This document shows, piece by piece, positions 33,025-49,730 of a DNA stretch of 64,000 nt (position 1 is its first letter; each line of letters begins with the position of its first letter). Made by a program: the position numbers and the translations under genes. The stretch lies in contig CAILEP010000035.1 of NCBI GenBank assembly GCA_903833275.1, positions 41,602-105,601 on the forward strand. The letters are read 5' to 3'. The stretch comes from an uncultured Bdellovibrionales bacterium. Its GTDB lineage: Bacteria; Bdellovibrionota; Bdellovibrionia; Bdellovibrionales; UBA1609. The notes under the pieces were generated by a model. That model saw nothing but the letters and a program-made list of their open reading frames with translations, was not told where the DNA came from and searched no databases.

Positions 33025-33053
33025 TTGACACTTAACGTGCCGCATTCTAAAAA
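33025..33053 (+). promoter_or_regulatory. sigma70-type promoter candidate for the giant AAA+/protease gene
   Basis: TTGACA (33025-33030), a 17-nt spacer, then TAAAAA (33048-33053). The ORF-track TTG 'start' is this -35 box. The real ATG at 33091 is preceded by AAAGGGG. Confidence 0.45.
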
Positions 33054-33090
33054 TCGGGCTCTCGTTAATATCTTAGAAAAGGGGCCTTGG

Positions 33091-36000
33091 ATGAGCGGGC
33101 GACGACTTCTCTTTATGGCGGTGCTTTACCCAACGTTGTTGTGGGCGGCAGTGCCTGCGACTGTTCAGGAGCTTAACGAACACTCTTACAGCGAAGTCAT
33201 TTCAGAGCTCGCCAAATCTGGCGCCGAAACAAAAGAAATTCTATCGCTCATGGCCGAGTTAAACGGCACTGGCACAAGTGTCGAAGAGGCAGCAAAAAAG
33301 CTAGCTCTACAGGCCGACGAGAATATTCTATTTTCGATCTTAGTGCGAATTGAGCACGAGTTTGTTTCGAAGAACATTCAGGGTAGTTTGGCCGAAAATT
33401 TGATCGAAATCGTCGGTAAAGTTGCGAGCCAGAAATATGAAGACATTTTGCGAAGTTTTCGCGAGCAATTGAACGACAAGGCGCTCAATTTTGGTCAGCA
33501 TCGAAAAATATTGCGCCGAACAATAGAAGCGGCACTAGCGCAGGTGAGAACTCGCACTGAAATTGGTCAACTGACTCAGGTTGAAATTGCGCCAAGCGAG
33601 GTGTCAACATTGCCGTTTGGTATGAAATCCTTCAAAGAATATTTGACCAAAGCCGCAAGCGAACAGGCGAAGCAAGGTAGCAGCGCAGGCCGAAACGCGA
33701 AGAATGGTCAGCCGAGCACTCCTGAAGGTTTTGTGCTAATGGCCACGTCGCAAATATTGACCGATGAAATTCGGCGCGAGCGAGCCGCGGGCACCGCTAA
33801 AGCCTTTATTGGTCGTGAAGAAGAGAAAGAGCAAGCGCGTAACGTGATGTTGCGGTCTAAAAATAAAATGCCAGTTTTGGTTGGGCCTTCTGGCGTTGGT
33901 AAATCGACAGTGGCGCTTATGTTGGCTGAAGATTTTTACGATGGTAAAATACCTGATTCGGAGGTTTTTAGAGAGCAATTTAAAAACGCTGAAGTGATCG
34001 AAACTTCTCCGGCCCGAATTTCTCAAATGGCTTTGTCCAATGAGCCCACGGCCCAAGCCGCCGCGCTCGAAATGTTTTTCGATGATGTTCGTCGTGTTGA
34101 AGAAAACTATCGCGAACGCACCGGCAAAGTGAAGCCGATCATCGTTTTAATTGATAACGTTCAGTCTTTTGATCCGCCCCAGATGGCGGCACTTATGCAG
34201 ACTCTCGAAAACAACAAAACCCCTATTCGAGTTATTGGTACGGCCCTGAGCGAAGCTCTCGACCTTAAAACCAAAATGACGGCCGGCATGGCTAAGGTTT
34301 TTGAAAAGATCGCGATCAGAGAGTTTTCAGTTGAAGAGGCGCGTGCTCGAATCGTTGAAACGTGGGCGCCAGAGTTTAAGAAAAAATTTAACGTGACCTT
34401 TGATAATGGCGCCCTTGACGCTGTTTTTCGGGTATCGAAGTACTTGAAGCCGAACAGTGCTCTGCCCGAAGGGCCGATTCGCGCTCTCGAAGACTATTCT
34501 ATCTATATACATGCTAAAAATCCGAAACAAGAAATCGTGGTCACCGGTCGAATGATCTATGATTATGCCCAAAAAATTACTGGCTTGCCGGTCAACCCTC
34601 TCGATGCAGCTGGTTTCTCCGAATATATTGATGGCGTTAGGGCCAAGTTAAATGAGCGTGTTGTTAATCAAGAGCCCATGGTGAAAGTTGCGGTCGACGC
34701 TCTCGAGCGAGCTTTAAGCGGTGACCCGCGTAAGCCAGTCTCAGTTCTTTTTGCGGGCCCAACAGGGGTCGGTAAGACTCTGGTCGGGCAATCTCTTGCT
34801 GAATTCGCGTTCAATGATAAAAATCGTTTCTTTGAAATCGACGGTACCGCTCTTCAAGACGGTAAATATTCGTTGGGTTCAATCTTTGGTGTGCCAACGG
34901 GCATTCAAGGCGCGGATGTTTCATCTGGTGAACTCATGGAGTGGATGGATGACCCGGCCCGCGGCAAATTCGGCGGCATTATCCTGATCAACGAAGCTGA
35001 TAAAATGCACCTGGATGGCTGGAAGCGCCTGATGGAGTTTCTAGATCGAGGCGCACTCTCTGGTGGCGACGGCAAACTTCGCTACGGCAATCGACATATC
35101 GTGATCTTCACATCGAACAAGGGCACGAAGAAAGTGTTTCCGGATTCGTTTGTCGGTTGGTCAGATGCTGAAATTGAAACTCGCGCTAAAAACACCTCAA
35201 CGCAGTTTCTTAAAAACATGCTGCTAGAGCGTGATCTCGAGCCGTCGAAAAACGAAGTTATTTTGACGCCCGAAATTGTCGGTCGAATTGATTTGGCGGC
35301 ATTGGCCTTGCCGGTTACCAAGACCACGGCACCAAGAATTACTGAAATTGAAACTCGTGAGTTCTTAAAGAATTTCAAAGCGACCTACGACGTTGACGTT
35401 GAGGTGAGCAAAGAGCTCAATGCGCAACTTGGGTTGACGGGCGTAAACTTTTTGTCAGGCGCGCGTAATATTCGAAATCAGGTGTCAGAGTATTTAACTC
35501 CCGCATTAAATGCAGCCCGAAAAAAATGGGCTTTAGCAGGTGGCCACACCTTGAAGTTGTCTCTTGAGGCCGCGCAGCCAGGGCAAGCGCCACAAATTGA
35601 AATCGAATTTAACGGCGAGAAGATCACGAGCCCGGCGCCTCAGTTAGCCCATGAAAACCCGCTCGAAGACCCCACCGTGCGCGACATGCTCGCTCATCTC
35701 TCTGAAAAAATGCACAGCCACATGCCCGAACAGCCTGAGGCGGTGGATATTATCGTAAGCGCTGTTCATGGTAAGTACGGTGATGTAAATCGCAAACGCC
35801 CGATTTCAATTTTGTTAGTGGGCCGCACAGGTCTTGGTAAGACCGAAATCGGCAAAGCCTTGGGTTTTGCCGTCTATGGCGATACCGAGAGATATTCGGC
35901 AATACCAATGAGCGATGTTGTTGATGAGCAGAGCTGGAACGAAGTGTTCATCCCGCAATTTGAGCGCGCACTAATGAACAACCCACAAGGTGGCGTTATT

Positions 36001-37314
36001 ATACCTGACGAGTTTTCAAACGTCGGTGGCGGCAACGTTCAGAAGAAAAAGGCTTTGCTGCTTAAATTTTTACATTTGCTCGAAGAAGGCACCTGGGTTT
36101 CGCCAGTCGACCCAACGCGAGTCTACGATTTGCGAAAGTACATCGTATTGTTTACCGGTAATGATCTTGAGACTCTTACTCAGGGTGTAACCAGTGACGA
36201 AGAGAATTTGAATATCTGGAAGGACAATCACTCGCGTGCGAAAGTTGAAACTCACTTAAAAGCCAATGGCGTGCCTGAGTCGTTTCTCAGCCGCCAAGAC
36301 GCGGTTTTGATGATCAAGCCTCTTACTGGTGAAGGCAAAGGTCGAGTCACTGATCGAATATTGATTGAGATCAGCAATCGGTTAATGAAACAACATAAAG
36401 GCGTCAAGTTTAAGTGGGGTGAGAAATTCACCTCGCAGATGGGTCATAGCTTTTTTACCCACGCTCGTGGGGCACGCAGTGTGCGCTCGGTTCTTGAAAA
36501 CACCGTGGCCGCCATGGTGACCGAAGTTTTGACGAAGTTTGGCTACGATCAGAAAAATCTCGACGGCTCTGAAATTCACTTTTCTATCACCGATAACGCC
36601 ATCACAAAGCCCTATATCAAGGGTCACGAATTGCCTCAGCGTGAGGTGATTTTAACGGCAGAGCTCTATAAGGGCGGCGAGCGCCGAGAGTCGCTAAGTG
36701 TAAATGCCACAGAATCGGCAGAGCCCATACAGCTCTTAACCGAGGCTGAAGCCGATTTAGCGAGTTATCACGAATTGGGGCATGCGCTGTTGAACGACGA
36801 GAGCCTAACGGGCCTCAGGCTTGTTCGAATCAGCATTCGAGGTCGATTGATCAATGGCGAATCTGTTATTGGTTACAATAGATATGACACTGTTCGCGGG
36901 GCTTCTCCGAGCCTTACTAGGCGCAGCGTTTTGGCGCGCTTAAAAATGCTCTGGGGTGGTCGCTTGGCCCAAGAGAAAGCTAATTTCGACCCCGATTCGG
37001 GTTGGGAAACTGACCTCGCGAACATGCGACAGATCGCCACCGATTATTTCAAAAAATACGGTTTGAAAGATGGTCTTGAGGCGATGAACCTCGATAGCGA
37101 TGGGCGCCCTCAGCCAAGTCGCGAGCAAACTGTTGAAATGCAAACTGAGATGAAAGCCCTTTTTGATGAATCACGAAAAATGGCAGAGCAAGAGCTTGAA
37201 GTCGTTTGGCCAAAGCTTCTTGAGGCTCACGCGTTGTTAAAAGAGCGCGGTGATATCGAAGGTTCAGAGTTACATGCGAAACCTGCAAAGACCTGTGCCG
37301 ACGAATTAAAGTAG
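33091..37314 (+). CDS. signal-peptide-bearing protein with three Clp-like AAA+ modules and a C-terminal FtsH/M41-like metalloprotease domain
   Basis: Signal peptide MSGRRLLFMAVLYPTLLWAAVPA. Walker A boxes lie at 33883 (GPSGVGKS), 34756 (GPTGVGKT) and 35821 (GRTGLGKT). Clp signatures are 'FIGREEEKEQ', 'VVNQEPMVKVAVDAL' and sensor-1 'IFTSN'/'LFTGN'. M41 signatures are 'SYHELGHALL' (HExxH at 36769-36783), 'ISIRGR', 'WGGRLAQE' and 'DLANMRQIATDYFKKYGL'. Confidence 0.8.
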   Translation: MSGRRLLFMAVLYPTLLWAAVPATVQELNEHSYSEVISELAKSGAETKEILSLMAELNGTGTSVEEAAKKLALQADENILFSILVRIEHEFVSKNIQGSLAENLIEIVGKVASQKYEDILRSFREQLNDKALNFGQHRKILRRTIEAALAQVRTRTEIGQLTQVEIAPSEVSTLPFGMKSFKEYLTKAASEQAKQGSSAGRNAKNGQPSTPEGFVLMATSQILTDEIRRERAAGTAKAFIGREEEKEQARNVMLRSKNKMPVLVGPSGVGKSTVALMLAEDFYDGKIPDSEVFREQFKNAEVIETSPARISQMALSNEPTAQAAALEMFFDDVRRVEENYRERTGKVKPIIVLIDNVQSFDPPQMAALMQTLENNKTPIRVIGTALSEALDLKTKMTAGMAKVFEKIAIREFSVEEARARIVETWAPEFKKKFNVTFDNGALDAVFRVSKYLKPNSALPEGPIRALEDYSIYIHAKNPKQEIVVTGRMIYDYAQKITGLPVNPLDAAGFSEYIDGVRAKLNERVVNQEPMVKVAVDALERALSGDPRKPVSVLFAGPTGVGKTLVGQSLAEFAFNDKNRFFEIDGTALQDGKYSLGSIFGVPTGIQGADVSSGELMEWMDDPARGKFGGIILINEADKMHLDGWKRLMEFLDRGALSGGDGKLRYGNRHIVIFTSNKGTKKVFPDSFVGWSDAEIETRAKNTSTQFLKNMLLERDLEPSKNEVILTPEIVGRIDLAALALPVTKTTAPRITEIETREFLKNFKATYDVDVEVSKELNAQLGLTGVNFLSGARNIRNQVSEYLTPALNAARKKWALAGGHTLKLSLEAAQPGQAPQIEIEFNGEKITSPAPQLAHENPLEDPTVRDMLAHLSEKMHSHMPEQPEAVDIIVSAVHGKYGDVNRKRPISILLVGRTGLGKTEIGKALGFAVYGDTERYSAIPMSDVVDEQSWNEVFIPQFERALMNNPQGGVIIPDEFSNVGGGNVQKKKALLLKFLHLLEEGTWVSPVDPTRVYDLRKYIVLFTGNDLETLTQGVTSDEENLNIWKDNHSRAKVETHLKANGVPESFLSRQDAVLMIKPLTGEGKGRVTDRILIEISNRLMKQHKGVKFKWGEKFTSQMGHSFFTHARGARSVRSVLENTVAAMVTEVLTKFGYDQKNLDGSEIHFSITDNAITKPYIKGHELPQREVILTAELYKGGERRESLSVNATESAEPIQLLTEAEADLASYHELGHALLNDESLTGLRLVRISIRGRLINGESVIGYNRYDTVRGASPSLTRRSVLARLKMLWGGRLAQEKANFDPDSGWETDLANMRQIATDYFKKYGLKDGLEAMNLDSDGRPQPSREQTVEMQTEMKALFDESRKMAEQELEVVWPKLLEAHALLKERGDIEGSELHAKPAKTCADELK

Positions 37315-37322
37315 TCAGGCAG

Positions 37323-38081
37323 ATGCAATACGCGCGCACACGCAATCGTTTCGACCCTCTCTCTGAGAAACCGTTTCGCCTTTCTCGATCAAAGCTTGAA
37401 CTGTTCATGAATTGTCAGCGCTGTTTCTACCTCGATCGCCGCTTAGGGATCGGGGCGCCGCCGAGCTTTCCGTTTAACTTAAATAATGCCGTTGATGCGC
37501 TTTTAAAAAAAGAATTCGATGAATATCGCGAACGGGGCATCCCGCACCCCTTGATGACTAAGAACAAGATCGCAGCCGTGCCGTTTCGTCATGAGAAGAT
37601 GGATCACTGGCGAGACGCTCTTCGTGGCGGGGTTTCATTTCACCACGCCGAAAGCAATTTTACCTTATCGGGCGGTATCGACGACCTTTGGCTCAATGGT
37701 GCGGGAGAGTTGATTATTGTTGATTACAAAGCCACCTCGAAGGCTGAGCGCGTATCGCTCGATGCCGATTGGCAAATTAGCTATAAGCGCCAATTAGAAG
37801 TTTATGCTTGGCTCTTTAGCCAAAATGATTTCAAGGTAGCCGAGGTGGGCTATTTCGTTTACTGCAATGCGCTCGCAACTGGGGCGCGCTTTGATCAGCG
37901 TCTTGATTTTGATATTTCGTTTTTGCCCTATAAAATTTCGGATGGTTGGGTCGGGCCGGCATTAAATCGCGCACGCGAATGTTTGCTGCAAAGCGAATTG
38001 CCGATTTATGGCGAAAACTGCGTTTACTGCGGCTACAATGAGGCCATTGGGCGTCTTAACAATCAGCTCAGTCTTTTTTAG
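37323..38081 (+). CDS. PD-(D/E)XK nuclease, RecB/Cas4-like
   Basis: 'GGIDDLW...LIIVDYKATSK' (D...DxK) and 'YKRQLEVYAWL' (QxxxY), with Cys pairs 'CQRC' near the N-terminus and 'CVYC' near the C-terminus. It starts 8 nt after the upstream stop. Confidence 0.75.
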   Translation: MQYARTRNRFDPLSEKPFRLSRSKLELFMNCQRCFYLDRRLGIGAPPSFPFNLNNAVDALLKKEFDEYRERGIPHPLMTKNKIAAVPFRHEKMDHWRDALRGGVSFHHAESNFTLSGGIDDLWLNGAGELIIVDYKATSKAERVSLDADWQISYKRQLEVYAWLFSQNDFKVAEVGYFVYCNALATGARFDQRLDFDISFLPYKISDGWVGPALNRARECLLQSELPIYGENCVYCGYNEAIGRLNNQLSLF

Positions 38082-49094: not shown

Positions 49095-49730
49095 TCAGTC
49101 TCTGCTGGGTACTAGATATCCGCGAGTTTTAATTTGACCTAACTTGATATCGCCAAGGTTGTTGAAATTGTTATCGCCCATAAAGATAATCCACGATTCA
49201 AATCGCACATGTCTAAAATCACCCTTATCAAGCACGGCCCGAAAAGCTTTGTCAGAGTTCAAGTCGGGCTCCGAAAAAGCATGCGGTATAATCGAATTGT
49301 AATTATCTTGCGGATGGGTGTGGCGTTTTCGAACGGTCGCGATTAGGTTTTTACGTTCTGAATTCTGCATCAAGAGCAGCCAGGCTGCCGCGCTCAACCC
49401 CTGAACCTGTTGAACCGCCCCTTTAATTATTTTTTGATCGATGACATTGCCGTCCTTATCGAGCAGTTCGACGATGCCCATTTCGATTGGATTATTAATG
49501 CTGCGAGAATATGAGCTCCATAAGAGGGCATGATCGGTGTGGTCAGCGGGGCGGCGAAGAGTTTTTGCTGAAAATGGAATATACGAACGAGCAAACGGCA
49601 GTAAAAAAGACGGGGCTTCATAGACGCCAAACGTTTCTGTTTTTAATAAATCTGAACAATCAACTTTAGAGTTTTCAGCCAAGACCAGCTGGCTTGCCAA
49701 TAATACAGTTAGAAAAATCCAAATCTTCAT
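49095..49730 (-). CDS. secreted hypothetical protein
   Basis: 211 aa with signal peptide MKIWIFLTVLLASQLVLA. It lies 20 nt downstream of the metalloprotease-like gene on the same strand. Confidence 0.55.
   Translation of the reverse strand: MKIWIFLTVLLASQLVLAENSKVDCSDLLKTETFGVYEAPSFLLPFARSYIPFSAKTLRRPADHTDHALLWSSYSRSINNPIEMGIVELLDKDGNVIDQKIIKGAVQQVQGLSAAAWLLLMQNSERKNLIATVRKRHTHPQDNYNSIIPHAFSEPDLNSDKAFRAVLDKGDFRHVRFESWIIFMGDNNFNNLGDIKLGQIKTRGYLVPSRD

Follow-up and report, generated by a model that had tools for sequence, protein, structure and literature searches.

In this study, a gene starting at position 33091 of a 64,000-nucleotide (nt) stretch of DNA from an uncultured Bdellovibrionales bacterium was analyzed; the whole stretch is called the window hereafter, and the genome that it comes from the source genome. 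The predicted product of the gene couples an N-terminal export signal to three ATPase modules of the AAA type and a zinc metalloprotease domain. The textbook view is that the periplasm and the exterior of bacteria are without ATP, and that energy-dependent unfoldases and proteases are therefore confined to the bacterial cytoplasm. The family described here unites a conserved export signal with retained ATP sites.

Gene start, N-terminal signal and domain order

The longest open frame over the site spans 33025-37314 (+), and the ATG at 33091 opens a protein of 1407 residues with the N-terminus MSGRRLLFMAVLYPTLLWAAVPATVQELNEH; translation of 33091-33170 gives MSGRRLLFMAVLYPTLLWAAVPATVQ. A promoter scan of a 400-nt region found one site, with 0.1 expected in shuffled sequences, and an alternative in-frame TTG (33025) falls within this promoter-like site. 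Because the −35/−10-like pair spans the TTG, the latter was taken as part of the promoter and not as a start.

Residues 1-23 have the n/h/c layout that an earlier note on this DNA, made from the sequence alone, had read there, and the present analysis confirmed it: the basic n-region MSGRR (five residues, charge +2) is followed by an uncharged hydrophobic core of 13 residues, LLFMAVLYPTLLW, and by small-residue cleavage sites. LWA20↓A and VPA23↓T are candidate signal-peptidase-type sites, of which the former was favoured because of the Pro at −2 of the latter, and an acidic stretch, TVQELNEHSYSE, lies directly after the signal region. A Kyte-Doolittle (KD) value of 1.6 over 19 residues was reached only within residues 6-25 in the 1407 aa, the second-highest value being 1.41, within the second AAA module (D2), so that residues 1-23 hold the single hydrophobic membrane-type segment in the whole protein. 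The lipobox L-[AS]-[GA]-C of a lipoprotein signal cleaved by signal peptidase II was not found, with zero Cys in residues 1-1401, and the Tat features searched for (a conserved S/T-R-R-x-F-L-K, a long n-region and a weakly hydrophobic core) were likewise absent, the RR occurring in the window copy only. The layout is that of a Sec-type signal peptide, with cleavage most likely after A20 or A23.

Domains were called by Pfam, NCBIfam and PDB sequence searches, and fold matches by Foldseek on AlphaFold2 (AF2) models. The predicted order is a signal peptide, a helical N-domain, ClpA/B-like D1 and D2 modules, a ClpB-D2-like D3 module, an FtsH-type M41 protease domain and a disordered tail (Table 1). 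The N-domain gave nothing significant against PDB folds in Foldseek (best E 0.34), and no Pfam match to Clp_N (PF02861) was found in the window protein. The D2 pore loop reads GIQG, without an aromatic residue, and the D3 pore loop carries an 11-residue deletion in the window copy. The AlphaFold model of residues 860-1407, built with 18 aligned homologues, had a mean predicted local distance difference test (pLDDT) score of 85.5, and its D3 AAA fold was nearest to the second nucleotide-binding domain (NBD2) of ClpB (Foldseek E 1.6e-15). Asp1308 aligns with the Asp of an FtsH motif, which in FtsH structures is the third zinc ligand. The last eleven residues are disordered (AF2 pLDDT ~32) and hold the protein's single cysteine, Cys1402. 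The predicted mass of the chain is 155 kDa, and a hexamer would be ~0.9 MDa. The NCBIfam equivalog scores for ClpB, ClpA, ClpV and FtsH were all far under their cut-offs; judged by these matches, the window protein is assembled from Clp and FtsH parts, yet belongs in neither family.

Table 1. Coordinates of the gene, its sites and domains, and of other features mentioned in the text. Positions refer to the window unless a contig (C) or locus (L) is given.
Feature	Position	Strand	Details
Promoter-like site	33025..33054	+	Perfect −35 TTGACA 33025-33030, 18 nt spacer, −10-like AAAAAT ending 33054
Ribosome-binding site AAAGGGG	33078..33084	+	6 nt 5′ of ATG 33091; sequence reading
Signal peptide, residues 1-23	33091..33159	+	n-region MSGRR, h-region LLFMAVLYPTLLW
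Helical-repeat N-domain, residues ~46-160	33226..33570	+	AF2 pLDDT 79-95
Linker, residues 161-228	33571..33774	+	Low confidence, AF2 pLDDT 40-56
AAA module D1, ClpA/B D1-like, ~residues 229-480	33775..34530	+	Pfam, NCBIfam and PDB searches, alignment
D1 Walker A GPSGVGKS	33883-33906	+	
D1 Walker B IVLIDN	34141-34158	+	Catalytic Glu replaced by Asn
AAA module D2 (AAA_2 + ClpB_D2-small), ~residues 484-830	34540..35580	+	Pfam, NCBIfam and PDB searches, alignment
D2 Walker A	34756-34779	+	
D2 Walker B IILINE	34978-34995	+	
AAA module D3, second ClpB-NBD2-like, ~residues 860-1140	35668..36510	+	Alignment, AF2 model, Foldseek
D3 Walker A	35821-35844	+	
D3 Walker B VIIPDE	35995-36012	+	
FtsH-type M41 metalloprotease, residues 1213-1370	36727..37200	+	PF01434, 41.7 bits vs. 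cut-off 29.9
HELGH zinc motif	36769-36783	+	H1227, E1228, H1231
Asp1308	within 37000-37017	+	Aligns with Asp of the Thermotoga maritima FtsH SGAANDIE motif
Disordered C-terminal tail KTCADELK	37288..37311	+	Holds Cys1402
PD-(D/E)XK / Cas4-like gene	37323-38081	+	Starts 9 nt past the stop of the AAA gene; no signal peptide
Post-signal tag protein	49095-49730	−	
Post-signal tag proteins, source genome	C13:113437-117180, C22:193435-194298, C28:42472-43458, C30:61534-62406		
ADP-ribosyltransferase (L029)	C17:7068-8240		PF03496, 26.3 bits vs. 23.4; signal peptide and C-terminal Cys tag
Amidoligase_2 enzyme (L035, L034)	C15:45511-49649		Signal peptide and C-terminal Cys tag
PrkA-type AAA/kinase protein and SpoVR/DUF444 fusion (L070, L071)	C22:218528-224133		Signal peptides, post-signal Cys tags
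932-aa double-AAA protein (L030)	C28:47467-50265		Signal peptide, C-terminal tag ...GESCTELLKGAK
1099-aa double-AAA protein with M41-like HEFGH domain (L031)	C31:142387-145686		Signal peptide, tail ...DSCASLLKGA
Orthologue locus, Rhodoblastus acidophilus DSM 137	L057:2956-11169		
Orthologue locus, Roseiarcus fermentans DSM 24875	L058		

A public gene call exists for the same gene, P0002 (window 34393-37314, 973 aa), which starts at an internal GTG with Val435 read as Met; a protein read from there would be without its signal, N-domain and D1, and in databases the export signal is thus concealed by miscalled starts of this kind.

Conservation of the signal and of the nucleotide sites

Relatives at E below 1e-50 were found in 10 of 41 related genomes, and 19 of the 22 named loci belonged to metagenome-assembled genomes (MAGs) of Bdellovibrionota/Oligoflexia. 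Further, a profile search of 1.84 billion representatives gave at least 150 clusters at 50% identity, the weakest listed at E ~1e-70. Public names of family members, where given, were only "AAA family ATPase", "hypothetical protein" or "ClpC". Full-text literature searches found no description of this AAA-M41 family or of the lone-cysteine tag at its C-terminus (see below), and a comparative-genomics paper on Bdellovibrionota mentioned no AAA, Clp or FtsH family. The family is large, previously undescribed and found mainly in uncultured Bdellovibrionota.

A simple signal-peptide rule was passed by 17 of the 18 homologues from Bdellovibrionota loci, the 18th having a weaker signal. Because this rule is permissive, flagging 39% of crude open reading frames (ORFs), a stricter test, i.e., an uncharged 10-residue segment with KD ≥ 2.0 within the first 45 residues, was used to compare 97 full-length family representatives, taken from the clusters listed, with 117 canonical Clp ATPases as the control. 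It was positive for 79 of the former and for 3 of the latter. Several signal-less exceptions in this census were visibly short gene calls, e.g., P0123, which starts right after the signal in its locus (L063). In the Bdellovibrionota homologues, the N-terminus passes from basic residues into a hydrophobic run that ends in an A-x-A-like site (e.g., VFA↓NQ, SLA↓QQ, LQA↓SQ, TFA↓QE, AMA↓DQ), and the N-terminal alignment block is without conserved residues, the signal being kept by position and not by sequence. In P0182, which at 51% identity is the nearest relative, the signal can be aligned with that of the window protein and reads MRGRSLIWLLLLYPTLVFATIPQ. No hydrophobic segment was found in the cytoplasmic ClpA-like and ClpB paralogues of the source genome. 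These results indicated that the predicted signal peptide is a trait of the family, and the suggestion of the earlier note to look for the hydrophobic N-terminus in homologues was thereby answered in favour of its retention, in the Bdellovibrionota loci and in the representatives alike.

Two ways in which the signal could be misread are touched by the same conservation. The segment would be an annotation artefact if the true start were a downstream Met (e.g., M54), the hydrophobic stretch then being an untranslated leader, and gene callers do disagree, P0002 starting far inside at a GTG. However, ATG 33091 agrees with the promoter-like site and the ribosome-binding site, relatives down to 26% identity keep both the open frame and the position of the signal, and the P0002 start would cost the protein all of D1; such an artefact appears extremely improbable. 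Tat export of a folded protein, already loaded with nucleotide and zinc, would use the twin arginine in MSGRRLLF, since G-R-R-L-L-F in the window copy loosely resembles the Tat motif and a cofactor-loaded protein could cross by this route. It is very improbable too, as the twin arginine is not conserved (P0182 has MRGRSL, others MKILK, MTRKCPK and MMRKVFSR), the n-region has 5 residues only, and the h-region is Sec-like in hydrophobicity.

The flanking charges of 81 signal-like N-termini were then compared. The n-flank was net-positive in 77, with a median n-region of 7 residues, and the 15 residues after the hydrophobic run were net negative in 53. The charge difference favoured an N-in/C-out orientation in 73 and the reverse in 2, while an AxA-like site stood at the end of the run in 71; the uncharged h+c run had a median of 20 residues (interquartile range 17-22). 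The earlier note had offered an unusual topology as a way out of the ATP paradox, i.e., of an ATP-dependent machine placed where ATP is held to be absent, and this way out is disfavoured by the N-in orientation, the positive n-flanks and the AxA-like sites alike. Its concrete form would be an uncleaved N-out/C-in anchor that, as in FtsH, tethers the machine to the inner membrane from the cytoplasmic side, where cytoplasmic ATP could be used. FtsH, the closest protease relative, is generally known to be membrane-anchored with a cytoplasmic catalytic part, the median uncharged run is long enough for a membrane-spanning helix, and AF2 draws residues 4-42 as a single helix with low confidence. In contrast, the positive-inside rule agrees with such an anchor in the 2 reversed cases only, the short basic n-region and the AxA-like end are those of signal peptides, there is one segment instead of the FtsH pair, and the operon neighbours and the tagged set described below are signal-peptide proteins. 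An anchor of this kind is thus quite improbable.

The nucleotide sites were followed across homologues with 26-42% identity. Invariant or nearly so were the Walker A lysines (K271, K562 and K917), the D1 Walker B Asp, the D2 Walker B Glu and the D3 Walker B D973/E974, the sensor-1 residues N676 (D2) and N1024 (D3), the Arg fingers and sensor-2 Arg (R732, R1068, R792 and R1129), as well as the zinc histidines H1227 and H1231, D1308 and C1402. D3 is a fully canonical motor with, in most family members, a G-[YH]-V-G-type pore loop beside the protease, and the D2 Walker B reads I-N-E in most of them. This pattern indicates that the nucleotide sites are under selection and that the family still needs nucleotide.

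The lone-cysteine tag and the predicted exported set

Family members end in a common tail pattern, a lone Cys, two residues and then two hydrophobic residues. The window tail is KTCADELK, with Glu at a position where most relatives have Leu, Ile or Ala, and other tails are CATLL, CRGLFQ, CADLLSGKL, CISLFQ, CNKIF and CSKLL. A Cys within the last 30 residues was present in 91 of the 97 family representatives, with 2.8% expected from their own cysteine content, and the Cys1402 column was invariant in the homologue alignment. The window protein therefore carries both a predicted signal peptide and a single Cys-x-x-hydrophobic-hydrophobic motif at its free end, and in relatives most proteins encoded by neighbouring genes had the same Cys motif, either at the C-terminus or right behind the signal peptide.

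The combination was also found elsewhere in the source genome, where the genome-wide counts rest on crude longest-ORF gene calls. Twenty proteins had C..LL within their last 22 residues, vs. 6.0 ± 2.0 for internal segments, and 16 of the 20 had signal-like N-termini (Fisher p = 2.5e-4). About 15 more proteins carried the motif just behind the signal peptide, e.g., ENSKVDCSDLLKTE and ANSQCTNLLSG, which brings the signal-plus-tag proteins of the source genome to ~35, C-terminal and post-signal forms together. Besides the proteins in Table 1, the tagged set includes an S41 peptidase and a Met-zincin. The PrkA and SpoVR/DUF444 proteins have their homologues in a stress module that normally resides in the cytoplasm, and the gene of the 1099-aa double-AAA protein lies directly 3′ of the cytoplasmic clpB. 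Because the tagged, predictedly exported set includes ATP- and NAD-dependent enzymes, the ATP paradox is not peculiar to this gene; it would extend to a whole set of nucleotide-dependent enzymes. Cysteine depletion was tried as separate evidence for export and rejected: the window protein has 1 Cys in 1407 aa vs. 1.0% in the proteome, but the cytoplasmic ClpB of the source genome also has 1 Cys, and among the canonical Clp controls the median is likewise 1.

The gene neighbourhoods of orthologues pointed to similar company. In a genome of the same genus (G004, locus L021 on C37, 3294-19857), the orthologue stands within nine same-strand genes whose products all have signal peptides and mostly carry the Cys tag, and which include a phosphoribosyl pyrophosphate (PRPP) synthetase, an SLOG/LOG protein and an EEP nuclease. 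In another genome, the orthologue adjoins a gene for an ABC1 kinase-like protein. A signal-bearing LFGG...DxD protein, for which no Pfam match was found, is encoded behind or beside the orthologue in four relatives; as a conserved partner it was dropped for the source genome, which has no homologue of it. A functional link to the PD-(D/E)XK/Cas4-like gene downstream in the window was likewise rejected, this gene standing beside none of the homologues examined, and so was a defence-system reading, PADLOC having returned generic AAA matches only.

Proposed site of action and comparison with known systems

Export as such is highly probable, as judged from the N-terminal sequences. That the protein is exported via Sec, probably with cleavage at 20/21 or 23/24, and acts where the ATP of another cell is available is the explanation that we favour, and we regard it as an evenly balanced proposition. 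In the mechanism that we infer, the 155-kDa chain would pass through SecYEG in the unfolded state, be cleaved and fold outside the cytoplasm, and then, in a producer of supposedly predatory lifestyle, it would take a step beyond the periplasm and use foreign ATP. The machine would work where foreign nucleotides are present, namely in the cytoplasm of an attacked cell or in a permeabilised prey cell. Such a site was proposed because the nucleotide sites appear to be under selection and the same signal-plus-tag format is found on enzymes of ATP, NAD or PRPP chemistry; delivery into another cell would best fit the company of tagged NAD- and ATP-dependent enzymes.

Several observations weigh against this explanation. 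The window copy itself reads IDN in the D1 Walker B, without the catalytic Glu, and INE in D2, without the Walker B Asp; it has no aromatic pore loop, that of D3 being deleted; and the protease residues are lost in its three nearest relatives (HEVGR plus Asn in P0182, HHIGH in P0003 and YYVGR in P0194). Predation is assumed from taxonomy, the source being an uncultured Bdellovibrionales MAG lineage, and we know of no route by which a 155-kDa protein or a ~0.9-MDa hexamer could cross the outer membrane into another cell. A search of the source genome for the ATP/ADP translocase family PF03219 gave no match, but it carries no weight, the controls being equally without a match. In addition, the orthologues of Rhodoblastus acidophilus and Roseiarcus fermentans are without a signal while the Cys tail is kept, and an uncultured alphaproteobacterium likewise has a signal-less orthologue.

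The sequence losses in the window copy and its relatives also speak for an alternative in which the protein is exported and stays in the periplasm or on the surface of the producer without any ATP turnover. The AAA modules would then serve as an assembly scaffold or a holdase, with nucleotide perhaps bound a single time, and the M41 domain at most an energy-independent peptidase; a D1 pore-loop region that is non-aromatic across the whole family and a periplasm classically held to be without ATP fit this alternative as well. However, the Walker A lysines, the D3 Asp-Glu pair, the sensor-1 Asn, the Arg fingers and the sensor-2 Arg are kept in the distant homologues, the P-loops and the D3 Asp-Glu pair persist in the window subclade while the protease decays, and other tagged exported proteins consume ATP or NAD as a substrate and cannot be scaffolds. 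Export without turnover therefore seems unlikely, and the idea of the earlier note that the AAA modules serve a function without hydrolysis is disfavoured for the family, in which the motifs are conserved, while for the window copy, with IDN, INE and no aromatic pore loop, it keeps some plausibility.

Within the four-member clade, the I-D-N of D1 and the 11-residue deletion in the D3 pore loop are common to the window copy and its sister P0182, HELGH plus the Asp is kept by the window copy alone, and the P-loops and the D3 Asp-Glu are retained in all four members. With its P-loops kept but the D3 pore loop and protease residues disappearing, the subclade still looks nucleotide-driven but is probably not a processive protease. 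It looks like a pseudo-protease in the making, and the window member may act as an ATP-dependent remodeller, not as a processive protease. The earlier placement of an "ATPase and protease" outside the cytoplasm is thus supported in part: as regards location, the family-wide signal and the flanking-charge bias speak for it, while the word protease has to be qualified, its site decaying in the subclade.

The signal-less alphaproteobacterial orthologues start with MKQK...AFLGLD/E..., have a degenerate D1 P-loop and end in ...DVCARLLV. Those of Rhodoblastus and Roseiarcus lie in a conserved three-gene arrangement with a ~960-aa protein ending ...YCDALGGV... and an RPE65-type oxygenase, and for the upstream protein of this operon neither a Pfam match nor a BLAST match to the Bdellovibrionota partners was found. 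In a FastTree phylogeny of the D3-M41 region (a quick tree with a midpoint root), the alphaproteobacterial forms nested in the signal-bearing diversity, sister to P0143 with a local support of 100. The gain of a signal on an ancestrally cytoplasmic machine was not supported by this nesting, and secondary loss of the signal after transfer is the likelier history. Retention of the Cys tail in the signal-less orthologues shows that a second-step export signal cannot be its whole role; the machine itself may use it for docking or recognition. The cultured Rhodoblastus and Roseiarcus strains offer a possible tractable entry to the family.

If export is real, these bacteria may make or use some compartment beyond their own cytoplasm in which ATP is present, or else they may send ATP-driven machines of very large size into other cells, and either outcome would be new for bacterial secretion and predator-prey biology. 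The signal and the lone-cysteine tag together provide a handle on uncatalogued exported enzymes of a normally cytoplasmic kind. A wider proposal, that the tag marks an effector arsenal entering attacked bacteria, with the AAA+ machines as either a motor that recognises the flexible tagged ends and moves the effectors across a membrane (a bacterial counterpart of the malaria PTEX/HSP101 translocon) or injected unfoldase-proteases that take the victim proteome apart with victim ATP, is unlikely.

Among known systems, FtsH shares with the window protein the M41 domain with HExxH and a downstream Asp, an AAA ring immediately upstream and an N-terminal hydrophobic segment. However, the window protein has three Clp-type AAA modules instead of one classical-clade module and one signal-like segment where FtsH has a pair of transmembrane helices that flank a periplasmic domain; its predicted orientation is the opposite one, and it scored 51.1 bits on the FtsH equivalog TIGR01241 vs. 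a cut-off of 600. To the class-1 Hsp100 proteins it is tied by D1 and D2, which match ClpB, ClpA and ClpC1 at E 1e-30 to 1e-51, D2-small included. It differs from them in lacking Clp_N and the aromatic pore-loop tyrosines of D1 and D2, and in adding a third AAA module, a fused protease, a signal peptide and a Cys tail; its scores on the ClpB and ClpA equivalogs were 174 (TIGR03346, cut-off 1232) and 168 (TIGR02639, cut-off 993), respectively.

In logic, the nearest precedents are Plasmodium HSP101, some phytoplasma FtsH copies and mitochondrial Yme1. Yme1, the i-AAA protease, is likewise an M41 AAA protease, with its catalytic part in the space beyond the matrix-side membrane, and its structure 6az0 was among the sequence matches; in contrast to the window protein, it has a single AAA module and is membrane-anchored, and the intermembrane space has ATP. 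For bacteria, Ruby and McCabe reportedly described in 1986, to go by their title, an ATP transport system in B. bacteriovorus (cited in PMC13689555), which would fit the presence of ATP around an attacking cell.

Outward-facing zinc proteases driven by ATP have been predicted in bacteria before: topology predictors place the catalytic part of some phytoplasma FtsH copies outside the cell, facing the host cytoplasm (PMC6981957). These are single-AAA paralogues of wall-less intracellular bacteria, for which the predictions disagree between programs, and they are without a cleavable signal, a triple AAA stack or a tag. A secreted AAA+ machine is known from Plasmodium, whose ClpB-like HSP101 reaches the parasitophorous vacuole and, within PTEX, threads effectors across a membrane (PMC6550532, PMC7355975). 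The HSP101 structures 6e10 and 6e11 were among the PDB sequence matches of the window protein, yet HSP101 is secreted by the eukaryotic route of the endoplasmic reticulum type, has two AAA modules and no protease, and works with the partners EXP2 and PTEX150. The resemblance between the two is one of logic, not of family membership.

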